39,120 nucleotides of DNA from a bacterium (GCA_021157735.1 JAGGVZ010000046.1:1-39120); one strand, 5' to 3'. Shown: positions 5,742-39,118, numbered from the stretch's first letter. Notes: a model not told the origin generated them from the letters alone. Numbers and translations are program-made.

Positions 5742-6269
5742 ATGGATATTTTTCTTTCCCCACCAGTAGCTTTTCTCCTAATTATTTTTTTAGGAGCAGT
5801 TATTTTTTATCTTGTTTACGTGTTTTTTATCCATGAAGGCCCTGTTTATCTTCCTTCTTCGTTTTCTGTGGCCGAGAAAATGATGGAACTGGCAGGAGTG
5901 AAAAAGGGAATGACGGTATTAGACTTGGGTTCTGGGGACGGAAGGATTCTGTTTGCTGCCGCTAAAAGAGGGGCACGGGCAATAGGATACGAAATCGACC
6001 CTTTTTTAGTCTTGGAGACTAGAAAGAAAGTAAAAAAAATGGGATTGCAAAAATTGGTAAGAGTCCATTGCCAGAGTTTTTGGAAGGCCGATTTTAATCA
6101 GGCCGACGTTATTGCTGTTTATCTTTTACCTAAGTATATGGAAAAACTGGAGAAACTTCTTAAAAAGAGGCTAAAGAAAAAGATTTTGGTAGTTTCTAAT
6201 TTTTATCGTTTTCCCCATCAGTCTCCGCTTCTTCAAAAAGGGCGGGTGATTCTTTACGAATTTCCTTAG
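5742..6269 (+). CDS. Membrane-anchored class I SAM-dependent methyltransferase
   Basis: N-terminal TM helix, PVYLPS, VLDLGSGDGR, GYEIDP, ADVIAVYL. Confidence 0.85.
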   Translation: MDIFLSPPVAFLLIIFLGAVIFYLVYVFFIHEGPVYLPSSFSVAEKMMELAGVKKGMTVLDLGSGDGRILFAAAKRGARAIGYEIDPFLVLETRKKVKKMGLQKLVRVHCQSFWKADFNQADVIAVYLLPKYMEKLEKLLKKRLKKKILVVSNFYRFPHQSPLLQKGRVILYEFP

Positions 6270-6343
6270 TGTCCCTGGGGAGAGTCGAACTCCCGACCTT
6301 CCGCTTAGAAGGCGGACGCTCTATCCATCTGAGCTACAGGGAC
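6270..6343 (-). tRNA. tRNA-Arg(TCT)
   Basis: Reverse complement GTCCCTG...TCCGC-CTTCTAA-GCGGA...GTTCGAC...CAGGGACA. Confidence 0.95.
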
Positions 6344-6348
6344 TGGTG

Positions 6349-6422
6349 TCGGAGCGGCGGGACTTGAACCCGCGACCTCAGCGTCCCAAACGCTGCGCGC
6401 TCGCCAACTGCGCCACGCTCCG
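6349..6422 (-). tRNA. tRNA-Pro(TGG)
   Basis: Reverse complement CGGAGCG...CAGCG-TTTGGGA-CGCTG...GTTCAAG...CGCTCCGA. Confidence 0.95.
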
Positions 6423-6429
6423 GATTTTG

Positions 6430-6514
6430 TGCCGCGGGAGGGATTCGAACCCTCACGCCCTTGTGGGGCACAAGATTTTAAGTCTTGCCTGTCTGCCAAT
6501 TCCAGCACCGCGGC
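6430..6514 (-). tRNA. tRNA-Leu(TAA)
   Basis: Reverse complement GCCGCGG...CAAGA-CTTAAAA-TCTTG, long variable arm. Confidence 0.95.
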
Positions 6515-6883
6515 TTATTTTTGATTTTCTAGCTTTTCCTCAATTTCTGCTAAGACCTTTAAAATCTGCTGTTGATAGTGTTGATTTTTCTCTTCCAAAT
6601 CAAGAATTTTATCGACAATATCCTTTTCTCGTTTTTGGGCAGCTGCTTCTCGCCGATCTCGAGCAATTTCCGCTTTGTTAGAGGCAATCAAAAGAAAAAT
6701 ACCAATAAAGATTGCCTCTAAAGAAACAGCGAGAGTGAGGATATTAATATCAAATTTGTAAATGAGCCAAAAAGCAAACCAGGCAGCGTGGAGAATGACT
6801 CCTAGCCAGCTGCCAGCAATTTTGCTCACAAACGCGAGCGTAATTTTCTCTAATTTTTCTAAAGGCTTTTCTTTCTCTTCCAC
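6515..6883 (-). CDS. DUF1003-like small membrane protein
   Basis: Two TM segments, GSW..VILHAAWFAFW, LTLAVSLEAIFIGIFLLIASN, C-terminal coiled coil. GTG start. Confidence 0.75.
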   Translation of the reverse strand: MEEKEKPLEKLEKITLAFVSKIAGSWLGVILHAAWFAFWLIYKFDINILTLAVSLEAIFIGIFLLIASNKAEIARDRREAAAQKREKDIVDKILDLEEKNQHYQQQILKVLAEIEEKLENQK

Positions 6884-6887
6884 GCGG

Positions 6888-6958
6888 TTCGGGGACGTGG
6901 ATTCGAACCACGATTCGCAGCTCCAAAGGCTGCTGTCCTACCGTTAGACGATCCCCGA
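6888..6958 (-). tRNA. tRNA-Gln(TTG)
   Basis: Reverse complement TCGGGGA...GCAGC-CTTTGGA-GCTGC...CGTGG-TTCGAAT-CCACG-TCCCCGA. Confidence 0.93.
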
Positions 6959-6965
6959 ATGTAGG

Positions 6966-7038
6966 AGCGGCGGAGGGGATTTGAACCCCCGACCTTCTCC
7001 TTGGCAAGGAGACGTTCTGCCAGCTGAACTACCGCCGC
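6966..7038 (-). tRNA. tRNA-Gly(GCC)
   Basis: Reverse complement GCGGCGG...TCTCC-TTGCCAA-GGAGA...CCGCCGCT. Confidence 0.95.
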
Positions 7039-7053
7039 TGGTAATGAGCTAGG

Positions 7054-7126
7054 AGCGGGAGACGGGATTCGAACCCGCGACCTTCTCCTTGGAAGGGAGA
7101 TGCTCTACCAACTGAGCTACTCCCGC
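7054..7126 (-). tRNA. tRNA-Gly(TCC)
   Basis: Reverse complement GCGGGAG...TCTCC-CTTCCAA-GGAGA...CTCCCGCT. Confidence 0.95.
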
Positions 7127-7135
7127 GCAACTGGG

Positions 7136-7208
7136 TGCCGAGGGTCGGAGTCGAACCGACATCCCGGGTTTTTCAGACCCGTGCCGTGACCGGCTTGGCT
7201 ACCTCGGC
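7136..7208 (-). tRNA. tRNA-Phe(GAA)
   Basis: Reverse complement GCCGAGG...CGGGT-CTGAAAA-ACCCG...CCTCGGCA. Confidence 0.93.
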
Positions 7209-7283
7209 AAAATGCCTATTTATAGGAAAAATTTTAACGTATATTTTTTAAATTATACAATATTTGCTCTGTTTTTAAAAGGG

Positions 7284-7368
7284 TGCCGAGGGGGGGATTT
7301 GAACCCCCACGCCCTATACGGACACAGCCTCCTCAAGGCTGCCTGTCTGCCAATTCCAGCACCTCGGC
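7284..7368 (-). tRNA. tRNA-Leu(GAG)
   Basis: Reverse complement GCCGAGG...CAGCC-TTGAGGA-GGCTG, long variable arm. Confidence 0.95.
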
Positions 7369-7414
7369 TCACGATAAATATAATATCAAAATCCTCTTTC
7401 TTTAGCTACTTCAG

Positions 7415-7488
7415 TGGCCGCTAGAGGACTCGAACCTCTGACCTTCCGGATGTAAACCGGACGCTCTAACCAACTGAGCTAAGCGGCC
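7415..7488 (-). tRNA. tRNA-Val(TAC)
   Basis: Reverse complement GGCCGCT...TCCGG-TTTACAT-CCGGA...AGCGGCCA. Confidence 0.95.
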
Positions 7489-7492
7489 TCAG

Positions 7493-7577
7493 TGCCAGAG
7501 GGGGGATTTGAACCCCCACCCCCAAAATGGGGACACGCTCCTGAAGCGTGCCTGTCTGCCAATTCCAGCACTCTGGC
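7493..7577 (-). tRNA. tRNA-Leu(CAG)
   Basis: Reverse complement GCCAGAG...CACGC-TTCAGGA-GCGTG, long variable arm. Confidence 0.95.
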
Positions 7578-18838: not shown

Positions 18839-21800
18839 TCAATGAGAATTATTACCGCTTTTAAGGATTGTCTGAATAGCTTTTTCTAGTTCTTCGCTAT
18901 AATTTACTCCTCCATTGAACCTGATTGTCTTTCCGTTGGGAAATTCAATAATGCAAGGAGTTTTCCCGGGGTTGTTTTTCAAAAGGGTGTTGAGCCTCAC
19001 TAAGGATTGGGTGCTAAACCCAGGAGGAATTTTAATTACCAAACTGGAGTCTTCTTTAAAATCTTTGGGGTGAACAATTTTTTCTGCAATCAAGGAAACA
19101 CGATCCTCTCTTCTGTCCACCTTTCCCTCAACCAAAATTAGTTGGTTGTCCTGAAGGAGTTCTTTTACTTCTTGGAAAATTTTAGGGAAAACCACGGTCT
19201 CGATTTGTCCGGTGTCGTCTTTAATCTGGACAAAAGCCATTTCTTCATTAGTTCTTCGGGTGACTGTTGTTTTCACCCGAAGAATAATTCCCACTACTCT
19301 GGTTCGACCACTGGTTTCCTCACCGTCCAGTTGGCTAATGGAATGAAAAGCAAGTTTTTTGTATTGGTTTATTTGCTTTTGAAGAGGATCTTCAGTGAGG
19401 TAAAATCCGAAAAGTTCCTTTTCAAAACTTAAAATTTCTTGAAGAGAAAATTCTTCTACTTCAGGAAGAGAAACAGCCATTGGCTGGGGATTGCTATTGC
19501 TGTTTTCTGAAGAATTCCCCTGATCGAACAGGCTGGTTTGTCCCGAGGCTTCTTGCCGTTGTTTCTCCTCTGCTCTACTCCTCACCTGGTCCAGAACCAT
19601 CAGTAAAGCCGCTCTTTTTCCAAAGCGATCCATTGCTCCTGCCTTAATTAAGCTTTCAATTACCTTTTTGTTTATTTTTTGGGTGTTGGTCCGCTGGCAG
19701 AAATCAGCTAAAGAACTGTACGGTCCCCCTTTCTCTCTGACTTGGAGGATTTCCTCTATTGCTGCCTCGCCGACATTTTTTATTGCCGAAAGTCCAAATC
19801 TAATTGCCAGTCCTTCTTTTGATTCCGGGTCCTTTTCAATAGTAAAGCCTTCATGGGAGAGGTTGATATCGGGGGGAAGAACCTTAATCCCCATCCGTCG
19901 GCACTCCTGAATTGCCAGGGGAATTTTAACATCTTTTGCTTGTTGGGTACCAGAACTAGCTTCGGCAGTAAGCAGGGCGGCCATAAATTCTACCGGATAG
20001 TTGGCTTTCATCCAGGCTGTTTGGTAGGCAATCATCGCGTAAGAAACAGAATGGGCTTTGTTAAATCCGTAGCCAGCAAATTTTTCTATTAAAGACCAAA
20101 CGTTTTCGATTACCTTCTTATCATATCCTCTTTCTAAGGCTCTTTTGGTGAACCTCTCTTTTTCCTTTTTCATTAACTCTATCTTTTTCTTCCCAATAGC
20201 CCGGCGGAGGATATCGCCTTCTCCGAGGGTATATCCGGCCATTACCTGGGGGATTTCCATACACTGTTCTTGGTAAACGGCAATGCCATAGGTTTCGGCA
20301 AGAACTTTTTCTAAATCTGGATGGGGATAAGTGATAGTGCGAGGGTTTTTCTTGCCCCTGATAAAATCATCAATAAATTGCATTGGTCCTGGCCGGTAGA
20401 GAGCGACCATAGCAGCAAGATCAGAGAATCGTGAGGGGCGGAGCTTTCTTGCCACCCTTCTCATTCCCTCACTTTCCAGTTGGAAAACACCGGTAGTTTC
20501 CCCTCGGGAGATCATTTCGTATACTTTTTTGTCGTCAAGAGGGATTTCTGAAATATCCACATCTATTCCCCGGGTGGCTTTTACGAATTGATGAGCTTTT
20601 TCCAAAATAGTTAAATTCCGCAATCCCAAGAAGTCCATTTTTAAAAGGCCAACAGCGTTGTCCGAGACATTCAAATCTAGAGAGTACATATCATATTGGG
20701 TGGTGATTCCTCCCCCCTTGCTATCTAATTGAAGAGGAGTATAGTTAACTAGTGGTTTATCAGAAATGACTACTCCGGCTGCATGAGTAGAGGCGTGACG
20801 CGCTACCCCGGTAAGTTTTTTGGCCAGGTCAAGAATTTTTCTTACATCAGGGTCGCTTTCATAGGCAGATTTTAGCTCGGGATTTTCCTCCATCGCTTGG
20901 TCGATAGAAATTTTCTTCCCCGGAGCGGCTGGGATCATTTTGGCAATTCTGTCCCCTACTGAATACGGATGCCCTAAAGCCCGAGCTACATCTCTGATTG
21001 CTAATCGAGACTCCATCGTTCCAAAAGTGATAATTTGGGCCGTGTGGTCTTCACCATATTTTTTCCGGACATATTCAATCACCTCATCGCGACGATCATC
21101 AGGAAAGTCAAGATCAATATCAGGAGTTGATTTTCTTTCCGGATTTAAAAATCGTTCAAAAGGCAGTTTATGGTAGAGAGGATCGATAGAAGTAATTCTT
21201 AAAATATAAGAAACGATAGATCCGGCCGCACTTCCCCTTCCCGGCCAACGCGAATCCCTTGGCTTTTTGCCCAGTTAACCAGATCCTGAACGATGAGAAA
21301 ATACTCCGCGTAACCCATTTTGATAATAATATCTAGCTCGTACTCCACTCTTTCTTTTACCTCTTTGGTGATTTTTTTATACCGCAAAGGCAGTCTTTCA
21401 TAAGTTAATTTGCGCAGGTAAGATTCCGCTGTTTCTCCTTCCGGGAGAGGAAACGAAGGATAGACTTTTTGCCCTAGGGGAATTTCCAAGTTACACTTTT
21501 CCGCTATTTCCTGGGTATTTTTAATTGCCTCGGGATAATCTTTGAAGATTTCTGCCATTTCTTCAGGAGAACGAAGATAAAAATCAGGAGAATTAATCAT
21601 ACTTAAGCGGTTGGGGTCATTTACTGTTTTTTGAGTTTGGATGGCCAGAAGGACATCTTGGGCCTCGGCGTCTTCCGGTTCAATATAGTGGGAATCATTG
21701 GTAGCTACTAAGGGAATTCCTAATTCTCGAGAAAGTTGGATGATTCCTTTATTAGCAATTTCTTGCCGAGGAATTTTGGGGTGGTGCTGGATTTCAAGAT

Positions 21801-22323
21801 AAAAGTCATCGCCAAAGATTTCCAAAAATTCTTTTGCCTTTTCTTTTGCCTTTTCGTATTGGTTTTGGATAATTAACGAGGGAATTTCTCCCTCAAGACA
21901 GGCAGTGGAGGCAATAAGTCCTTTGTGGTATTCTTTTATCAATTCCATATCGGCGCGGGGTTTATAATAAAATCCTTCCAAATGGGCCTTGGTGACAATT
22001 TTCATTAAATTGCGATACCCTTCCAAGTTTTTAGCCAAAAGAACTAGATGAAAGTTGTCACTATCCACTTTAGTCTCTTTGTCAAAGCGAGACCGGCGGG
22101 CGACATAGATTTCGCAGCCAATAATCGGTTTTATTCCCTCTTCTTTACAAGTGTTGTAGAACTTTATTGCTCCATACATCGCCCCATGATCAGTAAGAGC
22201 AAGGCTCTTCATTCCTAGTTCTTTAGCTTTGGCAACTAAAGGTTTTATTTTGGAAAGGCCGTCCAAGAGAGAATACTCGCTGTGGACATGGAGATGAGTA
22301 AACTCAACTTTCTTTTTTGCCAT
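18839..22323 (-). CDS. dnaE: DNA polymerase III alpha subunit, one gene interrupted by a 1-nt frameshift near 21243
   Basis: PHP domain (HLHVHSEYSLLDG) in ORF 21199-22323. Adding one C restores VGPGRGSAAGS...PDIDLDF, continuous with ORF 18839-21082 (HAAGVV, YGFNKAH, OB fold), giving about 1161 aa. Confidence 0.93.
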
Positions 22324-27843: not shown

Positions 27844-28881
27844 ATGAGCCGAAAGCAATTGTTTGCTTCCCGGTTGCAAAAAGGCGATACTATTGCCATT
27901 GTAAGTCCGTCTGGATGCGGAGCTGGGCTTTTTTCTCACAGAGTCAAAAGAGGTATAAAAAATCTTGAGCGTAGAGGCTACAGGGTTGTCTTTGGAAAAA
28001 ATGCTTTCAAAGTAACTGGTTATACAGCAGGCTCTCCCCAAGAAAGAGCCGAAGATATTAATCAACTTTTTAAAGATAAAGCAGTAAAAGCAATTGTGTG
28101 TGCTATTGGTGGTAATCACTCTAATCAACTTTTACCTCACCTGGACTGGAAAGCGATTAAAGATAACCCCAAAATTTTTTGTGGCTTTTCCGATATTACG
28201 GTTTTGCATCTCGCTATTCACAAAAAAACTGGACTTATTACTTTCTATGGACCAAGCTTTTTAAATCAGTTTTCTGAATACCCTACAATACACCGCTATA
28301 CCTGGGAGTATTTTTGTAAAGCTGTTGCTTCTCCTTCTCCAATAGGAAAAATTACCCCTTCTTCTTGGTGGACAGACGAAGTTTTAGATTGGGCTGAAAA
28401 AAAGGACTCACAAAGACCAAGAAGGAAAAAGAAAAATTGCGGTTGGATTTGGTTAAGGAGTGGGCGAGCATGCGGCCGATTAATTGGAGGATGTATTACC
28501 TCTCTCATGCATCTTAGAGGGACTTCTTATTTTCCTTCGTTTAAGAATGCCCTATTCTTTTGGGAAATACCCGAGGGTGAAAGTATATACGAAGGAGAGC
28601 CCGTTTCTGTAATAGATTCATATTTGACCGATCTTGAGTTAAGCGGAGTTTTCGAAAAAATTAAAGGAATGATAGTTGGAAGACCTTATCGTTATAACAA
28701 ACGCCAAGTTAAAGATTTAGTCGAGGTGATAAAAACAAGGACATCTGGCTATAATTTTCCTATTTTATTCAATGTTGATTTTGGCCACACAGATCCAATA
28801 ATCACATTACCCATAGGCGTGAGGGGAACTCTCGACTCTCAGCAAGATCTCTTTTCGATAGATGGAAAAGCTGTATGCTAA
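27844..28881 (+). CDS. S66 family LD-carboxypeptidase, MccF-like
   Basis: LQKGDTIAIVSPS, AGSPQERAED, AIGG, GFSDIT (catalytic Ser), TFYGP, GRLIGG, DFGHTDP (catalytic His); aromatic loop WWTDEVLDW. Start at ATG 27844. Confidence 0.88.
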   Translation: MSRKQLFASRLQKGDTIAIVSPSGCGAGLFSHRVKRGIKNLERRGYRVVFGKNAFKVTGYTAGSPQERAEDINQLFKDKAVKAIVCAIGGNHSNQLLPHLDWKAIKDNPKIFCGFSDITVLHLAIHKKTGLITFYGPSFLNQFSEYPTIHRYTWEYFCKAVASPSPIGKITPSSWWTDEVLDWAEKKDSQRPRRKKKNCGWIWLRSGRACGRLIGGCITSLMHLRGTSYFPSFKNALFFWEIPEGESIYEGEPVSVIDSYLTDLELSGVFEKIKGMIVGRPYRYNKRQVKDLVEVIKTRTSGYNFPILFNVDFGHTDPIITLPIGVRGTLDSQQDLFSIDGKAVC

Positions 28882-28982
28882 AAAATGATTAAACCGCCGC
28901 AATCAAAATAAATGGGATAAGGATTCATACGGGTTGAAGGGTAGATTCAGTGTTCTACGATATTATTTGTAGACAATGAAAA

Positions 28983-29210
28983 ATGGATATTTTTGTTTCT
29001 GTAAAAACAAATGCTGGGCAGGAAAAGGTTGAGAAAATAGATGAAACTCACTTTAAAGTTTGGGTAAATCAGCCAGCTAAAGAAGGCAAAGCCAATAAAG
29101 CGGTTATTAATTTACTTGCTAAAGCTCTAGGTATACCTAAATCAAGATTAATAATTATTAAAGGGCAAAAGTCACGACAAAAGATAATTAAAGTTTTTTC
29201 CTCTAGTTAA
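28983..29210 (+). CDS. DUF167/YggU family protein
   Basis: VSVKTNA, KVWVNQPAKEGKANKAVINLLAKAL, IIKGQKSRQK. Confidence 0.88.
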   Translation: MDIFVSVKTNAGQEKVEKIDETHFKVWVNQPAKEGKANKAVINLLAKALGIPKSRLIIIKGQKSRQKIIKVFSSS

Positions 29211-29278
29211 CTACTTCTTGACTCTCAGAACAGCTCCAATATACAGCTTAATTAGCCAAAAGATATTAAAATAAATAA

Positions 29279-30143
29279 ATGAATAATTCTCTTTTAAGTT
29301 GGACAAAAGCTACTCTTCAAAAATTATCTTTAAAACCAGACCTAAAACATAAAGGTCAGCATTTTCTTGTGGACAAAAATCTGGGGAAATTTTTAATTTC
29401 TCAACTGCCGGAATTACCGATAATTGAGATTGGTTCTGGCTTGGGAGCAATTACCGGGTTTCTTGTCCAGAGAAATCTTCCTGTTGTTGCGGTAGAAATT
29501 GACCGCCGGTTTGAACCAATATTAGCTCCTTTACAAGAAAAATATTCCAATCTAAAGGTAATTTTTGCCAACGTTCTGAAAGTTGATTTTTCTCAAATAG
29601 AAAAAGAGTTTAAATTTAAAAACAAGGTTTGGCTGACAGGAAATCTTCCCTATCAGTTAGTGGAGCCGTTATTATTAAAATTGGTAAGAAATCCGAAAGA
29701 AAGAGAGGTAATAGCAGGGGCTACCTTTCTTATCAGTGAACGCTCGGCTCGGGAGATGGGGAAATTGAAGCCGCCACGAGGCAAATTAGGAATTTTGGCT
29801 ACTAGTTTATTTAATTTCCAGTTAATTAAAGTTGGAATCGGGAAAGAAAATTTTTGGCCTCCTTCCCGGACTAGTTCTGCCATCGTTAAGTTAACTAAAT
29901 TAAAACCAAAAGAGCTTTACTCTTCTCCATCTCGCTTCTTTGGTACCGACTGTTTACCCATCCAAGAAGCAAAGTAAAAAATAGTCTTCGAGAAGGACTG
30001 GTTATCTTATTCCAAACCACTAAGAACCAAGCAAGAGCAATAATTAAAAAATTAGGATTATCGGAAAATCTATTAGAGAAGACAGTTGAACAACTCAATG
30101 GGAACCAGCTTGAAGAACTCGACAAGGCCATCTTCAAAGTTAG
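29279..30143 (+). CDS. rsmA: rRNA adenine dimethyltransferase RsmA/KsgA family, frameshifted near 29940 (true end uncertain)
   Basis: GQHFL, IEIGSGLGAIT, VEID, NLPY, FWPP. After a -1 shift it continues WYRLFTHPRSKVKNSL...KTVEQLN...LDKAIFK. A TAG-TAA-TAA stack at 30141-30149 needs a further -1 shift; otherwise the frame runs to 30276. Confidence 0.75.
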
Positions 30144-30149
30144 TAATAA

Positions 30150-30233
30150 TCAAAAGTCTTTTCCGCTCTGCTCTCTTTCTAGTTCGGAGAAGAAATTTTC
30201 TGTTTTGATCAGTTCTCTCTTTTCACTTATCAT
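30150..30233 (-). pseudogene. Internally deleted remnant of an HD-domain paralog (27 aa)
   Basis: MISEKRELIKTENFFSELEREQSGKDF* matches the N-terminus (MLSRAQRKQLI) and C-terminus (KIKNFFRELKKEHLGNDL*) of the HD protein at 33498-34148. Confidence 0.75.
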
Positions 30234-30244
30234 TTTACTTTTCC

Positions 30245-30785
30245 TCACCGATAGTCTTCGTTGGCTTTTCGAGTAAATTCTGCTAACTCGGCATCGGTCA
30301 TTAGCTTAATCCCTAGTTCTTTAGCAGCCTGTTTAATTCGCTTTTCCGCCCATTTTTTTCACTTGCTTGGGTGATAAGAACTTCTAATATGATAACCCCA
30401 AACTTTACTCCACTTTAGCGCTATTTCTACATCTTTGTATCTATAGTTATGATGCTTCTGAGAAGATTCTTGAACCTCAGTGAATCCCAATTTTTTAAAC
30501 ATGGTGACGACCTTTTCTACTTGAGAAGGATCAATAGGAATTTCTGTCTCTTCAAAATCACTCCCCTTACCTATTTTGTTTAACTTCAAAACTATTTTTG
30601 CTGTTCGCTTTGGTTTATTGTCAACAACTTTAAGAAGTTTATCAGGAAGAATAAAGAAAAGGATGTTCTTATCATCTGGCCCCAAATCTTCAGCATTCTG
30701 ATCCAAAAACTTTTTTTAACTGATTGTATTTTTCCTCTGAAAAAATGGCTCGAAATTCAATTTCGATTCTTTTCTTCTGGTCCAC
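30245..30785 (-). pseudogene. CYTH-domain (triphosphate tunnel metalloenzyme/class IV adenylate cyclase-like) gene with multiple lesions
   Basis: From GTG 30785: MDQKKRIEIEFRA (ExE motif), frameshift in the T7 run 30711-30717, then FLDQNAEDLG...FEETEI...LGF...NYRYKDVEIAL..WGYH, further lesions at about 30350-30390, then AEKRIKQAAKELGI...RKANEDYR*. Confidence 0.75.
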
Positions 30786-31887
30786 AATGGATCTTGGCAA
30801 GACTTTTAATGTAATGGTTGATGATTTTATCTGCTTCGTTTTTCCAGGAATAGTTTCTTTCTACCCATTGTCTAGCCTTAACCAACTTCTTTTTTGGAAT
30901 TGAACGCGAGAAAAGTCGAGTTATTAGTTGGGGATATTTATCTAAATTATCCTCTATGATTAGATGATTTCTAATTGTTTCCTTCAACCCCTCGATTGCT
31001 AAACCAGTAGCAATAGTTGGTATTCCTGCTGACAAATAAACGAGTATTTTTAGGCGAGTTCCTGATCCTGATGTAAGCGGAGCAAGAGCTATTCTAGTTT
31101 GTGAGAGTATCGGGTTTATATCGACAACTCCTCCAGTAAATTTAACTTTTTCTCCAAATTTTTTCATTTTCTGAGAGAGATATTTAGGGTAATTGCCTAC
31201 AAAAACAAATTCGGCTTGAGGTAAATTTTTTACAACAGGAGGAATAATTCTTTCTCTGATTATATTTACTGCTTCCTCATTTGGTTTATAAAACATATTT
31301 CCTAAAAATAAAACCAGTTTTTTGTTTGTTCTATTATTTTCGAATTGATAATTTTCTGGAGTAATGCAGCCACGATATAAAACGATTTTTTTCCTATCGA
31401 TTCCTATTTCGACTAAATCCTGCTTGTCTTTTTTTGAGCGGGCTAGAATTAAGTCGCTTTTTTCGCCGGCAATGCGTTCATATTTAATTGCCTTTTCAAT
31501 TTTCTTTTTGCTTCCGCCAAGGCGCGTGATTAATGTGTGATTAACATTGAGTACTTCCCAAACCTTTAAGCACCTTTTTCCTACCAAGTCTGCTTGAAAG
31601 GAAACTGCTTCAGCGCTGTCGAAGTGGCAGACGTTAATCTTATATTTTTCAATTAGATGTTGATAGAGTCTTGAGTTAATATAAAAATCACTTGGCTTAA
31701 TAAAAATTGTAGTAAAAGGTTGTTTTAAATATAACTGGTAATTATCCCAACCACGATAACACCGAAATAGAAAAACATTTGTGTTTTTCTTTTGTGCCAT
31801 TGTTTTAATTAGGCCGAACAATGATTCTGACCCACCTTCTTGAGGAGGAAGAAATGGTCCATCGCGGAAAAAGGCTACTCTAAGCAT
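30757..31887 (-). CDS. Glycosyltransferase family 4 (GT-B)
   Basis: FLPPQEGG, LFLGNMFYKPNEEAV, FVFVG, FTGGV, APLTSGSGTRLKILVYLSAGIPTIAT, NYSW. Confidence 0.88.
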   Translation of the reverse strand: MLRVAFFRDGPFLPPQEGGSESLFGLIKTMAQKKNTNVFLFRCYRGWDNYQLYLKQPFTTIFIKPSDFYINSRLYQHLIEKYKINVCHFDSAEAVSFQADLVGKRCLKVWEVLNVNHTLITRLGGSKKKIEKAIKYERIAGEKSDLILARSKKDKQDLVEIGIDRKKIVLYRGCITPENYQFENNRTNKKLVLFLGNMFYKPNEEAVNIIRERIIPPVVKNLPQAEFVFVGNYPKYLSQKMKKFGEKVKFTGGVVDINPILSQTRIALAPLTSGSGTRLKILVYLSAGIPTIATGLAIEGLKETIRNHLIIEDNLDKYPQLITRLFSRSIPKKKLVKARQWVERNYSWKNEADKIINHYIKSLAKIHCGPEEKNRN

Positions 31888-32444
31888 TGAAGCAAAATTA
31901 TCTTTATTACCTTTTTAATTGGCAACTTACTAGAAATACTTATCTTTGGGACTTCCGGCTCCATTAGTGGAAAGATGTTTTCATAAAAGTGCTTCATCTT
32001 TTTGAGACAATAGTTATTGGTCCATGGGCTGCGAGGACTTGGTTTGCGGTTTTTTCTGATGAAACAGAATTTTATTGGGCTACGAAGATAAATATAAAGA
32101 TTAGGTGGAATTAGCTTCTTTCTAAAACTATTTAGATACCATTTTCGAGCAATGGTAAAGGAACTGTGATGCTCGGGGTCATTTCTAACAGCATAATTAA
32201 AAGCTAAAGTTGAGATGTAATTTCTGTCTACAACTACATGTTGATGTTTAGAACACATTTTCCTAGCCAAGGTACACTTGTTTTCATCATTGATAAAATA
32301 AGGGTTTTTAAAATCTTTTTGCTTCTTTATTTCATTTACATCTACTACAATTTGCTCTACTAAACCAAAGGAATATTCCTTTGCCAATAGTTCTGCAATA
32401 GTTGTTTTACCTGCTCCGGGTAATCCTTCCAAAACTATAATCAT
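31875..32444 (-). CDS. Thymidylate-kinase-like P-loop nucleotide kinase
   Basis: IIVLEGLPGAGKTT (Walker A), VVVDRNYISTLAF, PPNLYIYL..P...RK. Confidence 0.8.
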   Translation of the reverse strand: MIIVLEGLPGAGKTTIAELLAKEYSFGLVEQIVVDVNEIKKQKDFKNPYFINDENKCTLARKMCSKHQHVVVDRNYISTLAFNYAVRNDPEHHSSFTIARKWYLNSFRKKLIPPNLYIYLRSPIKFCFIRKNRKPSPRSPWTNNYCLKKMKHFYENIFPLMEPEVPKISISSKLPIKKVIKIILLQCLE

Positions 32445-33489
32445 GTCTTTTGTTAACCTCTCTTAATTTGCTTTTGTCAGCAACAAAATACCACGATTTA
32501 TTTTTGAACAGTTGGTAATTAGTTCGAAAACGGCCCTTGATTAGAAGTTCTTTAATCCAATATGGCATGTGGGAAATAACCTTTTTTCTAATTACTTCCT
32601 TTTTAATAAAAAAGACATCCTTTCCTAATATAAGCTTTTTGTTAAACTCTTGATATTTTTTAAAAGTAAGTTTTCTTAATAATCGTGCTTTTCCTACATA
32701 TTGTTTTTCGTTGAAATTTCCAAATAACTCTTGTAATTTTTTCCTTGCTTCTTTGTTGTATACAGTTATTTCTAAAAAACCATTTCTTTTCAGAAGAGGG
32801 AAAATTGCAAAGAAGAATTCTTCTGGAACAGAAAAAAAATCAATCACATTAGTAGTGATAATAAGATTAAATTTTCCTAGCTTTTCTGGAGAATAATAGC
32901 AAATATCAGCTATTATAATTTTTTTAGGAAGTTTAAATTTTACACCACTAAAGCCGATAAGCCCCACTCCTTTTTTGATTAAGGAAAATTGCCTTTTGTC
33001 TTTTGGACCTCTCGTTATTCCAAGTATTTTGTCGAAAATTTTTACAGAAACTCTATCATCTCTTGTTAAGAGAAATTTTTTGAATTGATTAAGAGCTGCC
33101 AGATATTCTTCTTTTGGGATATCAATCTTTTCTCGTTGATGAGCTCTTTTCCTTTTCCCTATTAAATGGAGAAGAAATGCTTTGCCTACATCTTTTAGGC
33201 TAGCTCCTCGATCTATTAACCAACATGCATATAATTGGGATATTGCAGCTATAGGATTTTTTTCTACGACAACGGTTGAGTAACCTTTAGCAGCAAGATA
33301 ACAAGAATATAATACTCCCCCAACGACTAGAATCTGATTGGATGTTCTTTGTGATAAATCAATTTGTTTGCTTACAGAATCAAGCCAAAATCGACTTTGA
33401 TTTGGCCAAAAGAAGGTTCTTTCTTCTTCGTACTTTTCTGCTTGTTTAACTAAAGATGGTAATACCTGTTGAAGTTTTTTCTCATTCAT
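32407..33489 (-). CDS. Hypothetical protein with a class I SAM-dependent transferase-like fold
   Basis: ILVVGG...LAAKGYSTVVVEKNP (motif I/II-like), insertion, then ADI...KFNLIITTNVIDF...LLKRNGFLEI. Start set at ATG 33489. Confidence 0.55.
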   Translation of the reverse strand: MNEKKLQQVLPSLVKQAEKYEEERTFFWPNQSRFWLDSVSKQIDLSQRTSNQILVVGGVLYSCYLAAKGYSTVVVEKNPIAAISQLYACWLIDRGASLKDVGKAFLLHLIGKRKRAHQREKIDIPKEEYLAALNQFKKFLLTRDDRVSVKIFDKILGITRGPKDKRQFSLIKKGVGLIGFSGVKFKLPKKIIIADICYYSPEKLGKFNLIITTNVIDFFSVPEEFFFAIFPLLKRNGFLEITVYNKEARKKLQELFGNFNEKQYVGKARLLRKLTFKKYQEFNKKLILGKDVFFIKKEVIRKKVISHMPYWIKELLIKGRFRTNYQLFKNKSWYFVADKSKLREVNKRHDYSFGRITRSR

Positions 33490-33497
33490 GTTGAGAA

Positions 33498-34148
33498 TCA
33501 AAGGTCATTTCCTAAATGTTCCTTTTTTAGTTCTCGAAAGAAATTTTTGATTTTCTCAAATCTCTTTCTTGCTACTGATTTACTGGTCTGAAAATAAAGC
33601 TTTCTTAAAAGTTGCTGACGACCTTTCTTTCCTTCTTTTTTCCAATATTCCATTTCTTCCGCTAAGTTTAATTTTGCTAATGCCGCATAAGTAAAGGTAC
33701 GCCAAATTTGTAAATAGCCGAAATTACCTAACTCGTCAGCATCTTTTAATACTTTTGCTTCTAGTAATTTTGGCTCGTTTTCTTTGCTTTCTAAAATAAT
33801 TTGACTACTTTTTTCGATTAATCTTTTATCTTTAACTACTTTGCCAATGATTGATTCCAGTTTTTGAACAGCAATAGAAACATGATCTTTATTAGCTTGA
33901 GATTGATAGTCAATCATTCCCTGTTTGTTAACGGCCTCGATTTTACCAATGTCGTGGAATAAAGCAGCGATAAAAAGAGCGTCAAAGTCAACACTTAGCT
34001 TTTCTTTTTCAGCTATTTTTATTGCAAAAGTAGCTACTTGAACTCCATGAAAAAAACGATACTCCTTTCCCCCTCCTAACTCGAAAGTATTTTTGAAGCT
34101 TTGATAAAGAATATCAATTAATTGCTTCCTTTGCGCTCTGCTTAGCAT
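33498..34148 (-). CDS. HD-domain metal-dependent phosphohydrolase
   Basis: RFFHGVQV, AALFHDIGK, DHVSIA, EAKVLKDADEL. Confidence 0.9.
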   Translation of the reverse strand: MLSRAQRKQLIDILYQSFKNTFELGGGKEYRFFHGVQVATFAIKIAEKEKLSVDFDALFIAALFHDIGKIEAVNKQGMIDYQSQANKDHVSIAVQKLESIIGKVVKDKRLIEKSSQIILESKENEPKLLEAKVLKDADELGNFGYLQIWRTFTYAALAKLNLAEEMEYWKKEGKKGRQQLLRKLYFQTSKSVARKRFEKIKNFFRELKKEHLGNDL

Positions 34149-34270
34149 TTTATCTTTTCTTGTCGATAGTCTTCGTCAACTTTTCGAGTAAATTTTGCTA
34201 ATTCAGAAGAAGTTTTTCTGCTTGCCAAAATTCCTTGTAGTGAAAGGATGCTTTTTATTGACTCAATCAT
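34142..34270 (-). pseudogene. Remnant ORF (42 aa) carrying the 3' end of a second CYTH gene copy
   Basis: ...SELAKFTRKVDEDYRQEKIKC* versus CYTH C-terminus AELAEFTRKANEDYR*. Bases 34141-34208 align ungapped with 30226-30293 (54/68 identical by hand count). Confidence 0.7.
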
Positions 34271-34292
34271 TAGTTCTTTTCCATTCGTTACA

Positions 34293-36887
34293 TTAGCCTT
34301 TCTTTTCTAGTTTTAGTTCCCCCTTCTTTACTGTAATTACAACCCTGGCCCCTTCTTTCACTTTTCCTTCTACAATCATCATCGCCAGGGGGTCAAGGAT
34401 TTTGCTTTGGATAAGACGTTTTAAGGGGCGGGCGCCAAAAACCGGATTGTAGCCGTGTTTTGCCAACCACTTCTTAGCTTCTGGAGTAACCTCGATTTTG
34501 ATTCGTTGATCAGCCAGTCTTCGTTCCACCTGCTTAATTTGTAGGTCGACAATTTGCTCAATATGTTTTTCATTAAGAGATTCAAAAAGAACAATTTGGT
34601 CGAGCCGATTAATAAATTCGGGTTTAAAAGAATGGTCAATAATCTCTCTCACTTCCCGTTCCATTTCTTCTTTTGATTTCTTTCCTTCGGCGTACTGGCG
34701 GATTATTTCACTCCCAAGGTTGGAAGTCATAATAATGACGGTGTTTTTGAAGTCTACCGTTCTTCCCTTGCCGTCGGTGAGGCGGCCATCGTCTAAAACT
34801 TGAAGGAGAATGTTAAAAACCTGGGGGTGAGCTTTTTCAATTTCATCTAACAAAATAACTGTATATGGTTTTCGGCGCACTGCTTCAGTTAGTTGTCCTC
34901 CTTCTTCATAACCTACATATCCCGGCGGGGCACCAATTAACCGGGCAACTGAGTGTTGTTCCATATATTCGCTCATATCAATGCGCACCATGGCATTTTC
35001 ATCATTAAAAAGAACTTCTGCCAAAGCTTTGGCTAGTTCTGTCTTCCCTACTCCAGTGGGACCAACAAATAAAAAGGAACCGATTGGTTTTCCTTCTTCT
35101 TTTATTCCCGCTCGGGCCCGACGAATGGCATTGGCCACTTCCTTAACAGCATTTTCTTGATTGACTACTCTCTTGTGAAGTTCATCTTCCAAATGAGCTA
35201 ATTTTTCTGACTCGGCGGCAACGAGACGAGAGACAGGAATTCCGGTCCAACGAGAAACAATTTTGGCAATATCTTCTTCCGTTACCTCTTCTTTAATTAG
35301 CCGTTCTTCCCGGGGAATCTTCTGCCATTTACTTTCCCATTCTTTTAATTCTTTCTCTACTTGGGGTATTTGCCCGTATTTAATTTCTGCCGCTTTATTC
35401 AAATCCAGTTCTCGTTCTGCTTTTTTAAGATTTTCTTGGAGCTGATCTAATTTGGCTTTTAATTCTCTTATTTTGCTAACAATTTCTTTTTGCCTTTCCC
35501 AAGCAGACTTTAAGTCTCTTAATTTCTCCTTTTTCTCGGCGAGTTCTTTTTCTAACTTTTTTCTTCTCTCTTGGACGGTTTTAGCTTTTTCCTTCTTTAA
35601 AGCCTGGAGCTCAATTTCAATCTGAGTAATTTTTCGCTGTAACTCATCCAGTTCTGTGGGCATTGATTCTACTTCTATCTTAAGTGATGAGGCAGCTTCA
35701 TCGATAAGATCTATTGCTTTATCAGGCAGGAGACGATCACGGATATAGCGGTCAGAAAGAACAGCGGCGGCCACAATAGCATCGTCGCTGATTTTGATAC
35801 CATGGTGAATTTCATATTTTTCTTTAAGACCGCGGAGGATAGCAATAGTGTCTTCAACGGTAGGTTCCTCGATATAGACCGGTTGGAACCGCCGTTCCAG
35901 GGCAGCATCTTTTTCGATGTATTTGCGGTATTCCGCTACCGTAGTAGCGCCAATAGCATGAAGTGTCCCCCGAGCTAAAGCTGGCTTGAGCATGTTGGCG
36001 GCATCCACCGCTCCTTCCGCCGCTCCCGCGCCTACTAAAGTGTGCAGTTCATCAATGAAAAGAATATATTTTCCCGCTCCTGCCTCAATTTCTTTTAAAA
36101 CAGCCTTTAATCTTTCCTCAAATTCACCGCGGAACTTGCTTCCTGCCAACAAGGCGGCTAGATCCAAAGCCAGAATCTCTTTATTTTTCAAACTTTCCGG
36201 GACATCGCCAGCAACAATTCGCTGAGCCAGCCCTTCTACAATCGCTGTCTTCCCTACTCCTGGATCACCAACAAGGACAGGGTTATTTTTTGTCCGTCGC
36301 GAGAGAATTTGCATTACCCGCCGAATTTCTTTATCGCGGCCAATCACGGGGTCTAATTTTCCTTCTCGTGCCTGTTGGGTTAAGTTAATCGTGTATTTTT
36401 CCAGAACGTTATATTTCCCCTCTGGATTTTGATCGGTTACCTTTTGTGTTCCCCGGAGTTCGTTTAAAACAGCCTTAACCTTTTCTTTATCTATTCCTAA
36501 TTTTCGGGCAATTTCTTGAGTGGCCGAGTCTTTTTCCAATAGGGCAAGGAAAAGGTGCTCGCGGGAAATAAATTCGTCACCAAAAGACTCCGCTTCTTTT
36601 TGAGCTTGATTTAAAACCGTCCCTAGTTCTTGAGAAATATAAACTTGTCCTAGCTCTCCCCCTACTGTTGGTAAAGATTGAAGTTTTTCTTCCGCCTCTT
36701 TAACTAGCTCTTCAAGACTAATTTCTAGTTTTTTCAAAACTTCCACTACCACTCCCTCAAAATCAACTATCAAGGCGAGGAGAAGATGAAGAGGAAGAAC
36801 TTGGGGGTGGCGGTATTCTTGGGCTAACTCTTGGGCTCTAACCAAAGCTTGTTGAGAATTGTATGTTAGTTTTTCCGGGTTAATCAT
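34293..36887 (-). CDS. clpB: ATP-dependent chaperone ClpB
   Basis: Clp N-domain, two AAA+ modules ([16 protein letters not shown]), long coiled-coil M domain, RIDMSEY, GARPLKR. Confidence 0.96.
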
Positions 36888-36925: not shown

Positions 36926-36972
36926 TATGCTATTCCTTGTAAAAAATCTTTGTGGGTTTTAAAATAAAAAAG

Positions 36973-37743
36973 ATGAAGGAAAAAAACCTGTTGAAGTGGC
37001 TGTTTCTGGGAATTTTGGTAGTTGTGTTAGGAGGGGTAGTTTTTGTTTTAGGGAGGATTTCGGGGGAAAAGACCCAAAGCAGAAAAGCAGCTTCTTTAGT
37101 TATCCCCGGTTACCAACTCGCTGAAATTGAAGGTGCCCCGGCAGAATATGTTGTCGATTTAAAGAATCAGGGAGAAAAAAGGCAGTTGGTAAGAGTCTAT
37201 ACCGAAAACAAGGAAACAAAGACTTTGCCGGTAATTATTAAGGTTTTTTCTTTAGGAAAAGACGGCTTTAAGGAAGAATTCAAATTCGAAGCAAAATTTC
37301 CTGGAAAAGCCAAGCCTCCTTTTGATGTGGCTAATCAATTAGAGGAAGTAAAAGTAGAAAAGAACTTTTGGGGAGACGGAAGGACAGTGGTATTTTTCTC
37401 TCTTTTTTCAAACTATTACGGCTCAGGAGGAAAAAATTATTTAATTTTTCTTAGCTACAAGGAGGGAAGATATCAGGTGGTTCAGGGTCCAGTCCTCGAT
37501 GAGTTAGCTGACTACCGGTTTACAGGCAAAAACGGGAAAGGAGAAGAACTAGTAGTAGCAAAAGCGGTTTGGAACACTGAAGAGGAAGGTCATTTCTCTC
37601 CTCACCGATACACTCTTGAGCACTGGATTTGGAATGAAAATAGCTATGAAAAAGCAGGTTTAGAAAGGACAACTGAAAATAAATATGACCCCGCTTCTAA
37701 TGTCTTGGACCAAATCATCCAGAAAGAGCCCCACTTGCTTTAG
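36973..37743 (+). CDS. Hypothetical membrane-anchored extracellular protein
   Basis: ATG 36973, single N-terminal TM helix, beta-rich body (NYYGSGG, EGHFSPHRY). Confidence 0.75.
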   Translation: MKEKNLLKWLFLGILVVVLGGVVFVLGRISGEKTQSRKAASLVIPGYQLAEIEGAPAEYVVDLKNQGEKRQLVRVYTENKETKTLPVIIKVFSLGKDGFKEEFKFEAKFPGKAKPPFDVANQLEEVKVEKNFWGDGRTVVFFSLFSNYYGSGGKNYLIFLSYKEGRYQVVQGPVLDELADYRFTGKNGKGEELVVAKAVWNTEEEGHFSPHRYTLEHWIWNENSYEKAGLERTTENKYDPASNVLDQIIQKEPHLL

Positions 37744-37827
37744 TCAATTTTTTATTTTGGAAATTTAGCGAGCTAATTATCAAAAAAATTCAAACAAAAA
37801 AGGATTGTGAGATTTTTTGCTTTTGGT

Positions 37828-38655
37828 TTACTGATTGTGAAATAGTAAATTTTGGGAAACTTTTTCTCCTTTTAGGTTAGTGAAATGAAAATTTGGGTAG
37901 AGACTTCTGTAAATTTCGCTCATTCTGCGAAACTCTTTTTTGGGGAAATAGCACCATGGAAGACTTTGTTTTTTTATTCTTAATTTTTTTGATTCATAGG
38001 ATGGTGGAAATCCTGGGAGGTTGGTTATGTCTTGGACTTCTCCCTCTATTAGCCCTTTTTCTATAAGTTCTTTCCACCAAACACCATCTTGCTCTTTTTC
38101 AGAAATTGCGCTTTTTGGAGGTTGGACGGTGTAGACCTTACAGGGAATTTTTTTTAGTCCAAGCATTTTCATGGCCCCTGTTCGGTGCGTGCCATCTCTG
38201 ACGAAATAAACAGGCCCTTGTGGTCCTTGCATTTTTATCACCTCGATAGAAGAAGATCCCATACTCGAAGAATAGAGATTTATTCCAAAAATTCTTGCTA
38301 TTACTTCAGCCTGCTGTTCTAAATTATCTGTTTTAAATGCTTCAATAAGCGCTTGAGATATTTTTTGATGTTTTCCTTTTCTTCCATGATACTCATCTTT
38401 CCAGTTTTTTACAGCAGGAGAAACACTTCCTACAATTAATTTTACTGGCACCCATTCTTCTGTTGATTCTGTTATTTTCCCATAGTCTGGAAGGTGGCAA
38501 AATGGGATTTTCTCTAGTTCCTCTTCCTTTTCCTGCAGCTTTTCAGCTATATCTTTGTTTTCTAATTTAGTCCAAGGTTCTAATTCCTTCCGAAACTCTC
38601 CCAGAGCCTCCTGCATTATTCGTGAAAGAGAACTTTCATATTCTTGTTCGTCCAT
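37828..38655 (-). CDS. Hypothetical protein with a ParB/Srx-like DGxHR motif
   Basis: Long open frame; IEVIKM...YFVRDGTHRTGAMKMLG..KIPCKV resembles the ParB/sulfiredoxin core. ATG 38655 has GGAG upstream (alternative start 38673). Confidence 0.6.
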   Translation of the reverse strand: MDEQEYESSLSRIMQEALGEFRKELEPWTKLENKDIAEKLQEKEEELEKIPFCHLPDYGKITESTEEWVPVKLIVGSVSPAVKNWKDEYHGRKGKHQKISQALIEAFKTDNLEQQAEVIARIFGINLYSSSMGSSSIEVIKMQGPQGPVYFVRDGTHRTGAMKMLGLKKIPCKVYTVQPPKSAISEKEQDGVWWKELIEKGLIEGEVQDITNLPGFPPSYESKKLRIKKQSLPWCYFPKKEFRRMSEIYRSLYPNFHFTNLKGEKVSQNLLFHNQ

Positions 38656-38701
38656 CTTTCTCCATTTTACCATTCCCAAAAATTCAACGCTTTCTGTATT
38701 T

Positions 38702-39118
38702 TTATTTTTCAGCAAGTCTCATTAATTCCCGGTAGCGGCAGTATTCGCAATTTTCCCCGGGAGGAGGAATTTCTTCAGAATCAAGACATTTTTTAATTTC
38801 AAAAAGAGTTGGTTCTACCCAGGAATCATCGCCTTCGTAAGCGATAATTTTCACTTCAAATTCTAGACGGGCGTCAAACTTGGGCCGATTTTTGGCGGCA
38901 TTGGCAAAAATAAAATAGCCGGTATTAGAAACTTTAAAACCATTCTTCCTGAAAAGCCACTGATAAACTTCCATCTGCTTTTTATACCCCTGCTTATACT
39001 CATCTTCCAAAGAAATATCTTTCTCCGTGCTTGTTGCCTTATAATCTACAATCAAAAGCTCGCCATTTTTATTTATCCAAAGATCATCCACGGCGCCAAA
39101 AATTAAAAGATTAGTCGG
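38702..39118 (-). CDS. PD-(D/E)XK nuclease family protein (RecB/Cas4-like), 5'-truncated by the window edge
   Basis: GAVDDLW...IVDYKAT, QMEVYQWL (QxxxY), C-terminal CEYC. Confidence 0.85.
   Translation of the reverse strand, partial: PTNLLIFGAVDDLWINKNGELLIVDYKATSTEKDISLEDEYKQGYKKQMEVYQWLFRKNGFKVSNTGYFIFANAAKNRPKFDARLEFEVKIIAYEGDDSWVEPTLFEIKKCLDSEEIPPPGENCEYCRYRELMRLAEK

Follow-up and report, generated by a model that had tools for sequence, protein, structure and literature searches.

The locus described here raises the question of whether a bacterium with a tiny genome carries, in its own chromosome, a set of enzymes for the modification of nucleotides. We analyzed one whole contig of 39,120 bases (GCA_021157735.1 JAGGVZ010000046.1:1-39120; hereafter, the window) from a Microgenomates bacterium of the candidate phyla radiation (CPR), whose genome is represented by 680,529 bases in 63 contigs and is 89.8% complete. 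A preliminary description had proposed a five-gene operon at positions 30245 to 34148, encoding an HD hydrolase, an S-adenosylmethionine (SAM) transferase-like protein, a nucleoside monophosphate (NMP) kinase, a family 4 glycosyltransferase (GT4), and a CYTH protein, which together would build or recycle a modified nucleotide. Five co-oriented minus-strand frames do lie exactly at these positions, with successive overlaps, from HD to CYTH, of 4, 38, 13, and about 34 nt, and such overlapping frames would be read as one operon. The unit is not a five-gene one, as only four of the genes are intact. The reading we favor, tentatively and with a little less than even confidence, is that what the window contains is a reduced version of a rare and AT-rich island, acquired horizontally and of the phage-like kind, which would modify pyrimidine, probably cytosine, nucleotides. 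The four intact genes are the following.

33498-34148, minus strand: HD-domain phosphohydrolase, YpgQ-like, 216 amino acids (aa), a predicted (deoxy)nucleoside triphosphate ((d)NTP) pyrophosphohydrolase (Pfam HD, PDB relative)
32407-33501, minus strand: protein with a class-I SAM-methyltransferase fold (MT-like), of a rare family, 364 aa (structure model)
31875-32444, minus strand: thymidylate-kinase/dNK-like P-loop nucleotide kinase, 189 aa (Pfam dNK, Thymidylate_kin)
30757-31887, minus strand: GT4 glycosyltransferase (GT) of the GT-B fold, 376 aa (Pfam Glyco_trans_1_4)

These genes, 3.3 kb in all, have kept their full length, the P-loop, DR..STLA, and H..HD..D motifs, and the conserved MT-like and GT columns, and they contain six homopolymer runs of at least 7 nt and no frameshift. 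The earlier domain calls held for all four, since the HD, kinase, and GT4 proteins match their Pfam families above cut-off and the methyltransferase fold was confirmed by a structure model, but not for the 115-aa CYTH fragment, which scored 21.4 bits against a cut-off of 23.2. The HD protein (Pfam HD, 39.6 bits; cut-off, 22) is predicted from its sequence to be a YpgQ-type (d)NTP pyrophosphohydrolase. Its closest solved structure is 5dqv (E = 1.3e-6, residues 26-214), the Bacillus subtilis YpgQ, an Mn-dependent (d)NTP diphosphatase (PMC8177086, in part); the two proteins are alike in length and their H...HD...D ligands are aligned, but the match amounts to only about 31 bits.

The kinase matched dNK (34.5 bits; cut-off, 27) and Thymidylate_kin (28.0 bits; cut-off, 27), and carries a P-loop and a DR..S motif. 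A profile of its five-member family found thymidylate kinases as the best PDB matches over the full length, with E of about 1e-8. It is not the tmk of the genome, as its match to TIGR00041 (42.1 bits) was under the cut-off of 83.25; contig C29 carries a canonical tmk (158 bits) together with thyX, and contig C19 carries ndk. Because the genome thus has its own thyX, tmk, and ndk, the kinase of the cluster is an accessory gene. The GT matched Glyco_trans_1_4 with 65.8 bits (cut-off, 27), and its profile found WbnH as the best PDB match (3.3e-12), followed by BshA and PimA/B-type GT4 enzymes.

All Pfam methyltransferase matches of the MT-like protein were below cut-off (e.g., Methyltransf_23, 17.7 bits; cut-off, 27), and its Rossmann-like methyltransferase fold was confirmed with a model from a 23-sequence alignment, which replaced a 5-sequence model of poor quality (predicted local distance difference test [pLDDT], 53.9). 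It is closest in fold to N-methyltransferases acting on heterocycles, the top Foldseek and Atlas neighbors being CARNMT1 and the OvoM/OvsM imidazole-ring N-methyltransferases, and a weak TIGR04345 match was found as well. Motif I is degenerate, reading VVGGVLYS where GxGxG is expected, and most of the 23 family members retain an acidic residue at E80. The family is small, with about 39 representatives among 1.84 billion. A phylum-wide profile search matched 29 of 401 genomes, the window with 318.8 bits and the other 28 with 24 to 32 bits; we did not count these 28 as family members, as they matched in the generic methyltransferase core only.

Recurrence in other genomes, which the preliminary description had proposed as a check, was found. 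We counted 39 relatives of the MT-like protein and 41 of the GT, and saw the gene neighborhoods of a minority of them. Two other genomes of the Microgenomates class (G023 and G553) share the gene order HD, MT-like, kinase, and GT, at 34 to 74% identity, and parts of the block are found on three metagenome contigs (L006, L007, and L008). The relevant loci are as follows, with identities to the window.

G023 (locus L004, G023:C12): CYTH and Nudix genes on the opposite strand; then a 355-aa protein, a 232-aa nucleoside diphosphate kinase-like protein (NDK-like), Ham1, a short ThyA homolog, HD (74%), MT-like (49%), kinase (66%), and GT (67%)
G553: HD (51%), NDK, MT-like (34%), kinase (36%), and GT (43%) in a row
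G036: ThyX-like protein, 420-aa protein, P-loop kinase, APH-type phosphotransferase, GT, and NDK; Ham1 and Nudix genes close by; about 10 kb off, an HD gene of the YpgQ-like type
G472 (locus L056, G472:C1, 6884-9695): radical-SAM gene, GT ortholog, and Tmk-like kinase; then tmk and HD_4 on the other strand
L008 (metagenome contig): ThyA-like, MT-like (23%), GT (26%), and kinase
L007: ThyA-like, then MT-like; near-identical to L008
L006: HD, then MT-like

Among 40 relatives, the MT-like gene was found in one, G023, which belongs to the same taxonomic order but to a different family; its locus occupies the same chromosomal site, after clpB and before DUF763-gatC-gatA. The 355-aa protein that heads this fuller island (L004, 2767-3834) matched no Pfam, NCBIfam, PHROG, or PADLOC family, and by eye only, its N terminus shows a sulfotransferase or P-loop-type motif.

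Full-length GT orthologs are present in 3 of 400 sampled genomes of the class, and those of G023, G553, G036, and G472, 37 to 67% identical, each lie in a locus with kinase genes. A nucleotide-kinase-type gene accompanies the GT in all four full-length genomic orthologs and in L008, adjacent in four of these five and one gene away in G036. GT and kinase are even fused in a 610-aa protein (P0064): toward the N terminus it shares 36% identity with the GT, and its residues 417-610 align with residues 3-187 of the kinase. None of the GT orthologs in the loci examined lies in a polysaccharide locus, the setting that, by the preliminary description, would have spoken against its proposal; they sit with kinase-type genes instead. 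For more distant GT4 matches (E of about 1e-25) in seven genomes of the class, tblastn of the flanks (about 1.5 kb) found no relative of the HD, MT, or kinase genes. The MT-like/kinase/GT trio is thus kept at low identity, and the HD gene joins it in the three genomes with the whole block. The idea of a nucleotide-modification operon is supported by the conserved linkage, by the GT-kinase fusion, and by the kind of genes found as partners (ThyA-like, NDK-like, Ham1, and Nudix, all nucleotide enzymes), which fit the building or recycling of a modified nucleotide. Any product, and its class (metabolite, nucleic acid modification, or defense molecule), is putative.

The GC content of the cluster is 33.3%, compared with 41.2% for the genome and 42.7% for clpB, which confirms the AT-richness noted earlier from two spot counts, themselves correct; it falls in the lowest 0.9% of 914 equal-length windows of the genome (z = -2.84). 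The blocks of the other genomes are likewise poorer in GC than their flanks (32.8 versus 46.4%, 35.2 versus 40.8%, 31.7 versus 34.6%, and 37.4 versus 47.7%), so that low GC is found in all five genomes. On another contig of the same genome, C43, several kilobases of 32 to 34% GC are AT-rich like the cluster and may be another imported island.

A ThyA homolog lies beside the block in G023, L007, and L008 and elsewhere in the genome in G553. The short ThyA homologs of G023, L007, and G553 keep C146, R166, S167, and D169 (Escherichia coli ThyA numbering) and have Asp at the position of N177. Asp at this site is common to MilA, BcmA, and the T4 dCMP hydroxymethylase, all cytosine users, whereas uracil users have Asn (PMC5175136, in part). 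A 497-aa ThyA-type protein encoded elsewhere in the G472 genome has Asn there. As D169 is not replaced by Asn, the 5-hydroxy-dCMP signature D169N (PMC13326640, in part) is absent from the homologs of the relatives. The cues to sugar preference conflict, with Ser at S167 being of the deoxy type, but Lys at R126 possibly of the ribo type, if this position is equivalent to MilA Lys133'. Among solved structures, the G023 protein is closest to the CMP 5-hydroxymethylase MilA (E = 1.5e-7), barely ahead of thymidylate synthases, and since G023 also has ThyX, its ThyA homolog is an extra gene. In the genome of the window (680 kb, 89.8% complete), neither PF00303 nor the G023 protein found a ThyA homolog, ThyX being the only thymidylate synthase present, and no relative of the 232-aa NDK-like, Ham1, or 355-aa gene of G023 was found.

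A housekeeping explanation would be that salvage genes (HD, kinase, and NDK) have come to lie beside an envelope GT, with the kinases only recycling or supplying the nucleotide carrier of its sugar donor, and that no unusual nucleotide is produced. CPR bacteria lack de novo nucleotide synthesis, depend on salvage, and live attached to other cells; the best PDB relatives of the GT are O-antigen, bacillithiol, and PIM (phosphatidylinositol mannoside) glycosyltransferases, and GT reactions release nucleoside diphosphates that kinases could recharge. Within the class, YpgQ-like HD genes are, moreover, not confined to one setting and have NDK, guanylate kinase, Nudix, and histidine phosphatase genes as neighbors in varied loci. 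However, tmk, thyX, and ndk are already present elsewhere in the genome, the block is rare, its GC is low in every genome, unlike that of core metabolism, and it contains no sugar-1-phosphate nucleotidyltransferase or polysaccharide export gene. The cytosine-type ThyA homolog and the MT-like protein would also be left unexplained, and we regard this explanation as quite improbable.

The nucleotide-modification island that we favor would work as a pathway. The genes present, their folds and families, their recurrence and fusion, the Asp residue, the decay, and the low GC were observed, whereas each substrate, the sequence of reactions, and the ultimate target are inferred. Its enzymes would act in series on a pyrimidine nucleotide. 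The ThyA homolog with the cytosine-type Asp, present in the fuller copies (G023 and, in part, G553, L007, and L008), would add a one-carbon group to C5 of (d)CMP, and the MT-like protein would add a methyl group. The Tmk-like kinase and the NDK-like protein would then raise the modified monophosphate toward the triphosphate, and the YpgQ-like HD protein, Ham1, and Nudix would return unwanted (d)NTPs to monophosphates. The GT4 would add a sugar, either to the modified base in nucleic acid or to the nucleotide itself. The window keeps the HD, MT-like, kinase, and GT genes of this scheme as one operon, and being without a ThyA homolog, it would work on salvaged or already modified nucleotides or may be in the course of being lost. 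The logic would be the same as that of phage cytosine hypermodification, carried out by unrelated family members in a bacterial chromosome.

The T4-type pathway comprises a dCMP hydroxymethylase, a dNMP kinase, a dCTPase, and DNA glucosyltransferases. The proposed pathway resembles it (partly described in PMC5175136, in the portion available) in that a monophosphate would be modified and phosphorylated, the canonical triphosphate removed, and the sugar added after incorporation, and also in the cytosine-type Asp of the ThyA homologs of the relatives. However, the kinase, pyrophosphatase, and GT come from other families, and no phage genes lie nearby. In Acinetobacter phage DLP3 (gp76-80), Escherichia phage RB69 (gp45-48), and Rhizobium phage RL38J1 (gp214-216), a thymidylate-kinase-like "nucleotide kinase" is encoded between GT4-like glycosyltransferases and a ThyA homolog, and a dCTPase is present too; the ThyA homolog makes modified dCMP and the sugars are added on the DNA (PMC13326640, in part). 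A Tmk-like kinase adjoining a GT-B glycosyltransferase, a feature of these clusters, is also found in the window, where the two genes overlap by 13 nt, and the roles of ThyA homolog, Tmk-like kinase, GT-B glycosyltransferase, and nucleoside triphosphate (NTP) pyrophosphatase are all represented in the island family. The island differs in being chromosomal, located between clpB and gatCAB of a CPR bacterium, and its proteins have no detectable sequence kinship with those of the phages. Its pyrophosphatase is of the HD (YpgQ-like) type and not the dCTPase type listed in the available part of PMC13326640, and it adds the MT-like protein, NDK, Ham1, and Nudix. In addition, the ThyA homologs of the relatives keep D169, and the copy in the window is without such a gene.

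The same enzymes could instead make a free small molecule, i.e., a modified pyrimidine nucleoside or nucleotide serving as an antimetabolite, an antiviral chain terminator, or a signal, with the HD, kinase, MT-like, and GT proteins providing tailoring, activation, and self-protection. Bacimethrin and mildiomycin clusters contain a CMP hydroxymethylase (BcmA or MilA) and the MilB N-glycosidase, followed by a methyltransferase and a kinase. MilA and BcmA are treated in PMC5175136 and MilB in PMC4081090, each as far as the source was available. The likeness lies in the clustering of a cytosine-type ThyA homolog, a methyltransferase, and a kinase. A free product would also agree with the slight lead of MilA over thymidylate synthases, with the nearness of the MT-like fold to small-molecule N-methyltransferases, and with the GT-kinase fusion, which suggests a shared soluble substrate. 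HD enzymes are also known in nucleoside-analog pathways, such as OxsA (PMC8177086, in part). However, the kinase is P-loop Tmk-like rather than ThiD-like, the GT is a GT4, and Pfam found no MilB/BcmB-type N-glycosidase, ThiD-type kinase, or viperin in the window or in the clusters of G023 and G553.

A second model for a free product is the linkage of viperins with nucleotide kinases, which has been documented (10.1101/2023.09.13.557418, in part). The kinase of the window matched two models of PADLOC-DB 2.0, PDC-M51B (2.3e-11) and, weakly, VakA (1.7e-8), and in G472, the GT ortholog and a Tmk-like kinase follow a radical-SAM gene for which viperins were the best NCBIfam (59 bits; cut-off, 180) and PADLOC (60.6 bits) matches. 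As in the viperin systems, a kinase is here linked to a nucleotide-modifying enzyme, and the G472 row may represent another version of the island, with a different such enzyme as its basis. On the other hand, these viperin matches are weak, and generic radical-SAM models scored about equally. No radical-SAM gene, and hence no viperin candidate, was found in the window, nor was one present in G023 or G553, and a GT4 partner goes unmentioned in the available part of the viperin study, where "glycosyl" occurs 0 times. No whole PADLOC system was matched, and the NDK-like, Ham1, and Nudix partners point to pool handling at the triphosphate level, as in phage DNA modification. Altogether, we consider a free small molecule rather unlikely, if still worth keeping in view.

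The remnants around the four genes bear on whether this copy is still functional. They are the following.

30245-30790, minus strand: CYTH (triphosphate tunnel) pseudogene in three pieces (alignment to an intact ortholog)
34141-34290, minus strand: remnant of a CYTH 3' end, between clpB and HD, running into the HD start codon (direct repeat D1)
30148-30231, minus strand: remnant of a second HD gene that has lost its central part, so that the start adjoins the final ~20 codons (repeat D2)

The fifth gene of the preliminary description, CYTH, is a pseudogene. Its first ~26 codons, with an ExExK-type start, lie in another frame behind an A7 run (30711-30717), and after the WGYH motif, the true reading is out of frame at ~30362-30395 (about 11 codons) and returns at a second A7 run (30353-30359), where the open frame meets an in-frame TGA (30359-30361). 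Intact CYTH orthologs are 185 to 194 aa long, and the 186-aa ortholog of G755 (identity of 62% by the search and of 52% by the tblastn alignment) corresponds to three pieces in the window. TGA is a stop codon here because the HD and GT genes themselves end in TGA; an alternative genetic code was ruled out on this ground and also because long genes, e.g., clpB, are open under table 11. Sequencing error was not retained as an explanation either. Contigs from public runs X1 to X4, which belong to one study of vent metagenomes and may include the window's own sample, span the CYTH breaks with 0 gaps, yet correct an indel in the nearby ksgA. CYTH is also outside the recurring gene set: its orthologs in 6 of the 400 genomes of the class had no HD, MT, kinase, or GT relative in flanks of about 1.5 kb, and the G023 CYTH gave no tblastn match to the window.

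The two other remnants are revealed by repeats. D1 joins 30226-30289 to 34141-34204 (64 nt, 81% identity, spacing of 3915 nt; local score of 71 versus a shuffle maximum of 34), and the translation of 34141-34290 parallels the CYTH C terminus. D2 joins 30148-30206 to 33496-33554 (71% identity; local score of 43 versus a shuffle maximum of 36) and is collinear with D1. These remnants are most simply explained if a unit of HD, MT-like, kinase, GT, and CYTH was once repeated in tandem and one copy survives.

Such decay suggests that the window may hold a nonfunctional relic, i.e., an imported island that has lost its first enzyme and is eroding. Besides the three decayed pieces around the unit, no homolog of the ThyA-like, NDK-like (232 aa), Ham1, or 355-aa protein of G023 was found in the genome, and in another assembly of the same organism, a protein (P0001) identical to residues 5-260 of the MT-like protein continues in another frame near 32722 and stops at 276 aa. 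P0001 is either a one-base indel variant or an error of that assembly. Against such a relic, the four genes keep their full length, overlaps, and motifs over 3.3 kb, and the G553 block consists of the same four genes plus NDK. No indel was reported where the X1 to X4 contigs cover the four genes, the cover of the MT-like gene being thin and partly none. We therefore hold a relic to be just as improbable as the salvage-and-envelope explanation; it overlaps the other readings, because it concerns this copy only.

Several further observations weigh against a phage-like modification island. Neither the MT-like protein nor the kinase had a tblastn match in 50,697 phage records, the GT had two weak partial ones, and IMG/VR yielded no match when scanned with patterns from the MT-like and GT alignments. 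With no ThyA homolog found in the genome of the window, the first step of the proposed pathway is missing there, and the unit is framed by three decayed pieces. Motif I of the MT-like protein is degenerate and its SAM binding is putative, and the indel of the other assembly truncates its gene. GT4 enzymes mostly act on lipids and glycans, and a nucleic acid acceptor for this GT is putative. HD, NDK, Nudix, and NMP kinase proteins are also ordinary salvage enzymes, and the several other contexts of YpgQ-like HD genes in the class count on the same side.

An origin in a phage was considered and rejected, given the lack of phage relatives of the MT-like protein and kinase, the empty IMG/VR scans, and the chromosomal housekeeping flanks. 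The cluster is flanked by clpB upstream and then by ksgA, DUF167, LD-carboxypeptidase, DUF763, gatCAB with an MFS gene, dnaE, and tRNA genes, a setting that is not that of a virus-encoded locus. An anti-phage system, which the preliminary description had also considered, was not recognized by PADLOC-DB 2.0; besides the isolated kinase matches, there was a weak match of the HD protein to Cas10, and the MT-like and GT proteins had no match. An Rfam scan of 28500-35000 gave 0 matches to riboswitches or other RNAs, and the 11 promoter-like sites and 1 terminator-like site were no excess over shuffled sequences (12.9 and 2.7, respectively). No record holding RNA data is listed for this locus. A literature search, in a collection lacking most subscription journals, met with no account of such a combination of genes in CPR bacteria.

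YpgQ-like HD genes of the class also occur in other assemblages. A conserved row of nucleotide and sugar genes was found in L079 (G507:C10, 4933-9839) and L082 (G790:C30, 1271-7913), consisting of a nucleotidyltransferase (PolyA_pol head)-NDK fusion, a GT2, a YpgQ-like HD gene, a GT4 (weak "GT4-conflict" match), and a gene for a ~308-aa protein, plus, in L082, a carbamoyltransferase. These islands of G507 and G790 indicate that nucleotide-pool enzymes beside glycosyltransferases are a broader theme in these genomes. In L081 (G036:C7, 5981-8155) and L080 (G737:C4, 4924-7095), the neighbors of a YpgQ-like HD gene are two DNA methylase genes, one of the N6_N4 class and one of the D12 class, and two Nudix genes.

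Outside the cluster, the ksgA region (29279-30150, plus strand) has an early stop at 29977, and its C-terminal part lies in another frame from about 29950. Both contigs that cover this site (from runs X1 and X2) have an extra T after 29935 that restores the frame, so the window carries at least one assembly indel and the ksgA break is probably such an indel rather than a broken gene. The dnaE gene (18839-22323, minus strand) is split in two frames, one (21199-22323) with PHP and profile positions 1-62 of DNA_pol3_alpha and the other (18839-21082) with profile positions 116-260 and the finger, HHH, and OB domains, with a gap of ~116 nt between the two. The gene may be truly split, or the interruption may come from a frameshift or an error of assembly. 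Eleven tRNA genes lie within 1.3 kb on the minus strand (6269-7577), out of 14 in the whole window. Beyond clpB, three genes at 36952-39118 may form a small defense-like patch: a 263-aa protein with a weak match to the SAVED-fused two-transmembrane (2TM) effector family (PF18303, E = 8.7e-5, below cut-off; PADLOC 2TM effector, 0.0048), a 295-aa protein with no family match, and a PD-(D/E)XK/Cas4-like nuclease cut by the contig end.

To our knowledge, glycosylated or otherwise hypermodified pyrimidines have so far been known from phage DNA. It is conceivable, if on balance unlikely, that some Microgenomates bacteria possess a chromosomal, phage-like pathway for C5-modified, N-methylated, and glycosylated cytosine nucleotides, destined either for their own DNA or RNA or for a released analog directed against phages or the host cell; in that case, both the MT-like family and the GT4 subfamily linked to the kinase would be new enzymes for the modification of nucleotides or nucleic acids. 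If such chemistry were encoded in the chromosomes of ultra-small CPR cells, it would be more widespread than now known, and this would give a testable role to the MT-like family and to the GT4 subfamily that travels with the kinase, both uncharacterized. If the product were a free nucleotide analog, the island would be a candidate defense or attack module.

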